Shown here: positions 8,095 through 8,222 of the stretch, in pieces | How positions within the stretch are numbered: the stretch's first letter is position 1 | Layout: each line of letters starts with the position of its first letter | Assembly (NCBI RefSeq): GCF_003334385.1 | Contig: NZ_QOWN01000021.1 | Strand: one strand, 5' to 3' | Origin: Escherichia coli | Lineage (GTDB): Bacteria > Pseudomonadota > Gammaproteobacteria > Enterobacterales > Enterobacteriaceae | Length of the DNA: 64,000 bases | The notes under the pieces: generated by a model | The model's database searches: none | What the model saw: the letters and a program-made list of their open reading frames with translations, nothing else | What the model was told of the DNA's origin: nothing | Made by a program: the position numbers and the translations under genes

Positions 8095-8222
8095 TTCGTC
8101 TTTCACGCCATAGCGGCGTTGGCGTCGCCCGCTCACCCCGGTCACTTACTTGTGTAAGCTCCCGGGGATTCACAGGCTAGCCGCCTTGCTCTGACGCGAA
8201 ATACTTCGGAAATTCACCTAAT
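8095..8222. repeat. ERIC/IRU (enterobacterial repetitive intergenic consensus) element in the ahpC-ahpF spacer
   Basis: Core 8130-8173 cgctcaccccggtcacttacttgtgtaagctcccggggattcac matches the ERIC inverted-repeat core (ERIC primer sequences). Confidence 0.55.

Follow-up and report, generated by a model that had tools for sequence, protein, structure and literature searches.

A full-length ERIC element, an intrinsic terminator and a probable RNase III processing hairpin in the ahpC-ahpF spacer of Escherichia coli

The ahpC-ahpF operon raises the question of how a single operon comes to give unequal output from its two genes: AhpC is among the most abundant proteins of E. coli, and AhpF is required in far smaller amount. 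A first-pass annotation of the window, by which we mean the whole 64,000-nucleotide stretch of E. coli DNA that was analysed, placed an ERIC/IRU element between the two genes and proposed that it sets the ahpC:ahpF expression ratio through mRNA processing or partial termination. Our analysis separates the spacer into three modules, among which the ERIC is real but ordinary. For the most part, the question of unequal output has already found its answer in Term-seq and RNase III data from the literature, and these point to two conserved hairpins rather than to the ERIC.

Layout of the spacer and identity of the ERIC

Around ahpC-ahpF the window matches E. coli K-12 (W3110 and MG1655) at 100% identity, and a window coordinate equals the NC_000913.3 coordinate minus 631,420. 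The spacer occupies positions 8089-8332; its length of 244 bp, the figure already given by the first-pass annotation, follows from the end of ahpC at 8088 and the start of ahpF at 8333 (Table 1). We rejected an internal promoter for ahpF, given that a consensus scan of the spacer found no sigma-70-like site and that the three promoters reported for the operon all lie upstream of ahpC (Conway 2014). Folding of the RNA from 8080 to 8345 yields three independent modules, namely the ERIC hairpin, a GC-rich terminator hairpin and a further hairpin that we call hairpin 2, after which come the ribosome-binding site and start codon of ahpF.

Table 1. Coordinates of features at the ahpC-ahpF locus, in window numbering
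Feature	Position	Strand	Evidence or remark
ahpC CDS (peroxiredoxin AhpC, 187 aa)	7525-8088	+	ORF; 100% identical to K-12 b0605
ahpC TAA stop codon	8086-8088	+	
Full-length ERIC/IRU element, 127 bp (limits +/-1 nt)	8088-8214	.	core match, inverted-repeat arms, fold, multi-copy family
Left terminal inverted repeat AATTTCC	8088-8094	.	includes last base of ahpC stop codon
ERIC central core inverted repeat, 44 nt, ERIC1R and ERIC2 primer sites	8130-8173	-	consensus match
Right terminal inverted repeat GGAAATT	8208-8214	.	
Intrinsic terminator of ahpC	8226-8252	+	consensus scan, fold, Term-seq 3' ends, covariation
Hairpin 2, probable RNase III processing site	8258-8311	+	inverted repeat, fold, RNase III-dependent RNA-seq peak, conservation
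ahpF Shine-Dalgarno AGGAG	8322-8326	+	
ahpF ATG start codon	8333-8335	+	
ahpF CDS (AhpF, 521 aa)	8333-9898	+	ORF and K-12 annotation

ERICs, also named IRU or RU-1, are 127-bp miniature inverted-repeat elements of Enterobacteriaceae that have been known since 1990-91, reportedly through the work of Sharples and Lloyd in 1990 and of Hulton et al. in 1991. The element at 8088-8214 is a genuine full-length member of this family, and the earlier identification of the spacer core as ERIC/IRU is correct. As the core consensus we used primer ERIC1R, reverse-complemented, joined to primer ERIC2; the two sequences are found together in 233 papers. The core matches this consensus at 41 of 44 positions (3 mismatches, minus strand), a result attained by 0 of 100 dinucleotide shuffles, and the 7-bp terminal inverted repeats span a distance of 127 bp. 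These repeats also correct the limits of 8095-8222 that had been given for the element: an ERIC is indeed present there, with a true extent of 8088-8214. Its 27-nt outer arms are 74% complementary. On the left it is flanked by TA (8086-8087), which forms the beginning of the ahpC stop codon; on the right, K-12 has TC, and most copies found at the same site elsewhere have TA. The element thus lies in the ahpC 3' UTR, between the stop codon and a Term-seq 3' end at 8248/8250, and is extragenic and transcribed. The first-pass annotation also stated that ERICs lie within transcribed spacers between genes and are able to influence the stability of mRNA, in agreement with reviews (PMC2229807, PMC3184786).

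The published consensus orientation corresponds to the minus strand at this locus, and transcription of the element proceeds on the plus strand. As RNA, the transcribed strand forms a long hairpin of -45.4 kcal/mol (z -3.4; no shuffle folded as well) whose duplex is broken by many mismatches, as compared with -68.0 kcal/mol for the opposite strand. Using the 127-bp element as a query returned 36,901 places in 5,426 E. coli genomes, with a median of 7 and a maximum of 15 ERIC-related places per genome and 10 in a K-12 derivative. The other E. coli copies are about 77% identical to the ahpC-ahpF copy over about 92% of the element, and the 64-kb window itself holds this single copy.

Annotation resources carry little trace of the element. 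NC_000913.3 has no repeat annotation at its position, and Rfam 15 holds no ERIC family; a search of 7300-8600 at a permissive threshold gave only sub-threshold matches to V_AS5 and CssrA. The best match to the ERIC was V_AS5 (RF02818), full length at 8092-8213 on the minus strand, with 22.8 bits against a gathering score of 96. Judging from this alignment, which includes the ERIC core, V_AS5 ("Vibrio RNA AS5") looks ERIC-related and may perhaps have been built on an ERIC-like Vibrio repeat.

Separately from the spacer, the window contains a match to the enterobacterial STnc70 sRNA family (RF02069) at 7287-7380 (+), between dsbG and ahpC, scoring 42.7 bits against a gathering score of 40. An "orphan" plus-strand Term-seq 3' end of MG1655, 638796 or window position 7376, falls at the end of this match (PMC7815308). 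Further Rfam matches above the gathering score lie at 12593-12701 (-), 25687-26129 (+), 55262-55424 (-) and 63815-63998 (-), and the families concerned are the rnk leader, a cspA-type thermoregulator, the sroC sRNA and two tRNA genes.

The terminator and hairpin 2

Between the two palindromic stretches singled out by the first-pass annotation, and unmentioned there, is a GC-rich hairpin followed by a T-run. Its stem has 8 bp, 6 of them GC pairs (TCGGGTGC/GCACCCGA), closed by a 4-nt loop; the hairpin spans 8226-8245, leads into TTTTCTT and folds at -16.6 kcal/mol (z -4.6). Transcripts do end at this terminator. In the MG1655 Term-seq data of Adams et al. 2021 (PMC7815308, supplementary file 1), plus-strand 3' ends are called at 639668 in two lists and at 639670 in a third, corresponding to window positions 8248 and 8250; both fall in the U-tract of the terminator, whose hairpin begins 12 nt past the ERIC. 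Between 638796 and 643497 the three data sets have no other plus-strand 3' end. Because the lists, sorted by coordinate, step straight from 638796 to 639668/639670 and then to 643497 or 657545, no 3' end is called inside the ERIC or hairpin 2 in any of the three. The terminator is presumably leaky, with some transcription continuing to ahpF, since ahpF lies downstream of it with no promoter-like site in between.

The same two downstream hairpins recur across the family. For this comparison, spacers were extracted from 80 species retrieved via the AhpF N-terminus, and 81 distinct sequences were aligned. Both the terminator hairpin and hairpin 2 are found in 81 of these 81 Enterobacteriaceae spacers, whether or not an ERIC is present. 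Over the aligned set, 7 of the 8 terminator stem pairs have undergone compensatory changes, a score attained by 0 of 500 shuffles, and the stem variants include CGGGTGC/GCACCCG, TGGGCGC/GCGCCCA and CAGGCGC/GCGCCTG. Hairpin 2 is conserved in a different manner. Its full arms of 21 nt (8258-8278 and 8291-8311) are 81% complementary and enclose the inner arms catgatgcaagc at 8261-8272 and gcttgcatgatg at 8297-8308. Across the 81 spacers the arms (CCATGATGCAAG, GCTTGCATGATGATG) are nearly invariant and 99.3% paired, and it is the hairpin top that differs among species, in both sequence and length. The "further palindromes" that had been noted near the ahpF start are therefore real at 8261-8272/8297-8308 and do not belong to the ERIC: given that terminator and hairpin 2 are kept with or without it, they represent a probable processing site outside the element.

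The assignment as a processing site comes from the comparison of a wild type with an RNase III deletion mutant (rnc) by Gordon et al. 2017 (PMC5371410), who report a site at 639695 with 3,598 reads in the mutant as opposed to 4 in the wild type. This coordinate corresponds to window position 8275, at the top of hairpin 2 and 61 nt downstream of the ERIC end; the exact positions at which RNase III cuts within hairpin 2 are putative. In the same study, RNA over the ahpC-ahpF region was cleaved in vitro, and the half-life of ahpC mRNA was about 14 min in the wild type and about 6 min in the RNase III mutant, with ahpF unchanged (PMC5371410). RNase III cleavage thus stabilises ahpC mRNA.

Two other readings of hairpin 2 were considered and set aside. 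A DNA site for a dimeric regulator is unlikely, since the spacing of the invariant arms differs widely from species to species. The right arm, in the region 8303-8335, carries ATGATGATG, which in Escherichia is in frame with ahpF and would lengthen that reading frame by 10 codons upstream of its annotated start; most other genera have an additional T here, which yields a 4-codon ORF (MMMF*) closing about 15 nt upstream of the ahpF start. The reading of this AUG-AUG-AUG as a conserved mini-ORF was dropped, since neither the frame nor the stop codon is conserved.

Taken together, we think it likely that the ERIC is largely a passenger, and that the output of ahpC versus ahpF is set by the terminator and by hairpin 2 as cut by RNase III. 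According to this model the ERIC, situated at the TA of the ahpC TAA stop codon, would be co-transcribed as a 127-nt imperfect hairpin within the ahpC 3' UTR and the ahpCF intercistronic RNA. At the leaky terminator (8226-8252) most transcripts would end after ahpC, with partial read-through presumed for the remainder. In the read-through transcripts, RNase III would cut the hairpin at 8258-8311 and part the ahpC mRNA from the ahpF mRNA. The cut would add to the excess of ahpC over ahpF because the ahpC mRNA is left with a protective 3' hairpin and would be stabilised by it. We infer that any effect of the ERIC is at most small or modest, and modulatory in nature. The proposal that RNA processing or partial termination at the ERIC determines the ratio finds no support in these data, in that both the 3' end at 8248/8250 and the RNase III signal at 8275 lie outside the element. 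It fares no better against natural variation, since roughly 47% of E. coli genomes have an internally deleted ERIC and about 20% lack it, with terminator and hairpin 2 identical.

Variation and conservation of the ERIC

These frequencies come from a search of 5,426 complete E. coli genomes, 5,423 of which contain the locus in one of three length classes. The full-ERIC allele has the 244-bp spacer of K-12. A centre-deleted allele has a 170-bp spacer, with 74 bp lost from the middle of the ERIC and a 52-nt hairpin left (-18.3 kcal/mol), and an empty allele, as in O157:H7, has a 128-bp spacer with no recognisable ERIC. By junction-specific queries, which left about 500 of the 5,423 genomes unclassified, 1,749 genomes have the full ERIC, 1,406 have centre-deleted sub-type 1, 659 have centre-deleted sub-type 2 (that of Nissle 1917 and ATCC 11775) and 1,110 have the empty site. 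An evenly spaced sample of 30 records contained 10 full, 14 deleted and 6 empty sites, and as a rough estimate the ERIC is intact in about 32% of the genomes, internally deleted in 47% and absent from 20%. The terminator and hairpin 2 are identical across the alleles, save for rare single-base differences in the hairpin top. Because deleted and empty alleles are common and the downstream modules unchanged, an intact ERIC is dispensable in nature. The sequence AAGTTCC GCAAT of the empty allele may itself be an ERIC remnant, by analogy with a Citrobacter spacer (L088) in which only the two ERIC ends are left (AATTCGCTGCGAATT).

Beyond E. coli, the stretch between the ahpC stop codon and the terminator is the variable part of the spacer, being occupied by a full ERIC, a deleted ERIC, REP-like palindromes or almost nothing. 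A full ERIC is found at the ahpC stop codon in 35 other species of more than 10 genera, one of them with two copies, so that 37 full ERICs could be aligned (K-12 plus 36 copies in 35 species). Ten further genomes encoding the AhpC protein of Salmonella diarizonae, which are probably S. enterica, have a full ERIC in the same place in 10 of 10 cases. Internally deleted ERICs occur in Escherichia albertii, other Escherichia and some Kluyvera, and REP-like palindromes take the slot in K. pneumoniae, Enterobacter, S. enterica subsp. arizonae and others. It therefore seems, as far as the spacer sequences tell, that the gap between stop codon and terminator collects repeat elements.

Some individual spacers deserve mention in their own right. 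REP/BIME-like repeats of the GCCGGATG...CTTATCCGGCCTAC type are seen among spacers L016-L084 (e.g. L028, L030 and L058), with Pseudocitrobacter and Lelliottia also among the genera that have them. The 377-bp spacer of Phytobacter diazotrophicus (L032:924-1300) contains two full ERICs of different subtypes in tandem, in the same orientation and directly 3' of the ahpC stop codon. A short ERIC remnant comes after the stop codon of Lelliottia nimipressuralis CCUG 25894 (L079:1084-1300), and another palindrome (CTCATGTAA...TTACATGAG), surrounding an ERIC-core-like fragment in the opposite orientation, stands in place of the hairpin-2 region.

The strongest competitor to the passenger model is that selection maintains the ERIC as an orientation-specific RNA element within the ahpC 3' UTR, where it tunes ahpC mRNA stability or translation termination and so helps to set the ahpC:ahpF ratio, its hairpin beginning at the stop codon. 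This is in essence the idea of the first-pass annotation. Yersinia offers an analogy (De Gregorio et al. 2005): reviews describe orientation-dependent effects of ERICs on upstream mRNA in that genus (PMC2229807, PMC3184786). Several features of the element speak in its favour. The orientation and the start at the stop codon are common to all 37 copies in the alignment, which come from K-12 and 35 further species and include both Phytobacter diazotrophicus tandem copies. The K-12 ERIC is 90-92% identical to the same-locus copies of Leclercia, Citrobacter, Klebsiella grimontii, Phytobacter and Salmonella (S. diarizonae), and is thus more conserved than the synonymous third positions of the flanking genes in comparisons of K-12 with those genera (68-72% identical in ahpF and 75-80% in ahpC). 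Compensatory changes affect 11 of the 31 hairpin pairs, which 0 of 500 shuffles attain, and in the deleted variants of E. coli, Kluyvera and others a shorter hairpin still forms. The mean fold over the 37 copies is -50.2 kcal/mol for the transcribed strand versus -62.1 kcal/mol for the opposite one, and the opposite strand is the more stable in 36 of the 37, so that the ERIC is read in its mismatch-rich, weaker-folding orientation. Site, orientation, conservation and folding hint at constraint rather than pure neutrality, and they leave room for a modest regulatory role.

Other observations nevertheless weigh more heavily, and we regard a selected role of this kind as unlikely. About 20% of E. 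coli genomes do without the ERIC and about 47% without its 74-bp centre, and no compensation is seen downstream; many genera have REP-like repeats or nothing in the slot. Inside the ERIC there are no Term-seq 3' ends, and the unusually stable ahpC mRNA of MG1655, with its half-life of 14 min, carries a full ERIC, which counts against destabilisation of the Yersinia type. The conservation and covariation could moreover stem from constraints acting on the mobile-element family as a whole, from conversion between copies or from recombination between genera. The last of these is suggested by the spacer sequences themselves, because ERIC subtypes are linked with the linker and terminator sequence that follows and the resulting haplotypes recur in different genera (L013-L088); one example, AATTCGC...GCGAATT followed by AATCCTCAAGCGGGTGC, is common to Citrobacter, Klebsiella, Raoultella and Kluyvera. 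Such exchange may proceed across the conserved ahpC and ahpF flanks. An attempt to count independent ERIC insertions by subtype was abandoned, since the linkage of subtype and terminator across genera suggests recombination. The fixed orientation accordingly carries little statistical weight, because the 37 copies are no count of independent insertions.

A more ambitious version, which we rate as somewhat more doubtful still, would make the ERIC an old 3'-UTR RNA element under selection across Enterobacteriaceae, held in its weak-folding orientation and fine-tuning ahpC mRNA stability or translation termination. The weak-folding orientation would in that case avoid a near-perfect duplex prone to RNase III cuts or ribosome stalling. 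If the ERIC were indeed selected, the full, centre-deleted and empty alleles would each represent a distinct functional variant in the expression of the main peroxide-scavenging enzyme. The fixed orientation together with the unusual conservation across genera could justify a small experiment on ERIC function, and the comparison of strains with and without the element that the first-pass annotation proposed is feasible, given that full, deleted and empty alleles are all common in E. coli.

A further alternative starts from the fact that no other near-duplex in the spacer is as long as the ERIC hairpin, and takes this hairpin to be the published intercistronic substrate of RNase III. The transcript used for cleavage in vitro extended from 8017 into ahpF and thus included the ERIC (PMC5371410), and the published algorithm merges sites less than 400 bp apart and keeps one per 400 bp (PMC5371410), so an additional cut within the ERIC is conceivable. 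We consider even such a second cut unlikely, and the identification of the ERIC as the reported substrate highly improbable: the ratio peak at 8275 is 61 nt beyond the ERIC in the top of hairpin 2, the transcribed duplex is mismatch-rich and folds at -45 versus -68 kcal/mol for the opposite strand, and hairpin 2 is conserved also in species without an ERIC. As for the concern that alignment to an ERIC consensus might reveal only the chance similarity of a palindrome, it is already refuted by the core match of 41/44 against 0/100 shuffles, the exact 127 bp with terminal inverted repeats, the roughly 7 related copies per genome and the 36 closely alignable same-site copies in other species.

Comparison with known systems

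Set beside the ERIC/IRU/RU-1 family, the element of the ahpC-ahpF spacer differs in nothing essential. It shares with other members the length of 127 bp, the central inverted repeat (41/44), the 7-bp terminal inverted repeats and the TA on the left flank, as well as its intergenic, co-transcribed position, its multi-copy nature and the existence of internally deleted variants. Its peculiarities are the TC on the right flank in K-12, its abutment on a stop codon and the presence of same-site equivalents in many genera. Hulton and colleagues reportedly listed in 1991 an ERIC beside ahpC in S. typhimurium, and Wilson and Sharp are said to have noted in 2006 that ERICs are conserved between species. 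A full-text literature search for ERIC together with ahpC found nothing relevant. The original finding was a correct identification of a known element from which an over-reaching inference was drawn, with the terminator and the RNase III site already present in published data sets.

REP/BIME elements of 3' UTRs and intercistronic regions offer a second comparison, in that these palindromic repeats are found at the place taken by the ERIC here, behind the ahpC stop codon and ahead of the terminator; they differ from the ERIC in belonging to another sequence family and in having a much shorter unit.

The ERICs of Yersinia are a third comparison. As the work of De Gregorio et al. 2005 is summarized in two reviews (PMC2229807, PMC3184786), these elements destabilise the upstream mRNA through an RNase E site in their right-hand repeat, and the model presented in those reviews is that a terminating ribosome exposes this site. 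The ahpC element resembles the Yersinia ERICs described there in adjoining or overlapping a stop codon, in being co-transcribed and in its fixed orientation, and a ribosome terminating on ahpC should likewise open the basal stem. It differs in that the ahpC mRNA is very stable (14 min) and that no processing or 3' end maps inside the ERIC here. The Yersinia model, in the form given by the reviews, does not fit ahpC, because the half-life of 14 min is that of a strain with the full ERIC.

A counterpart of the arrangement that we favour, in which the terminator and hairpin 2 set the output of the two genes, is the uncoupling of genes within one operon by a leaky internal terminator together with RNase III, as at pflB-pflA (PMC5371410). 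There too a terminator hairpin is followed by a hairpin that RNase III cleaves, the upstream mRNA is stabilised and the downstream gene has the lower output. The likeness concerns the modules at 8226-8311 and not the ERIC.
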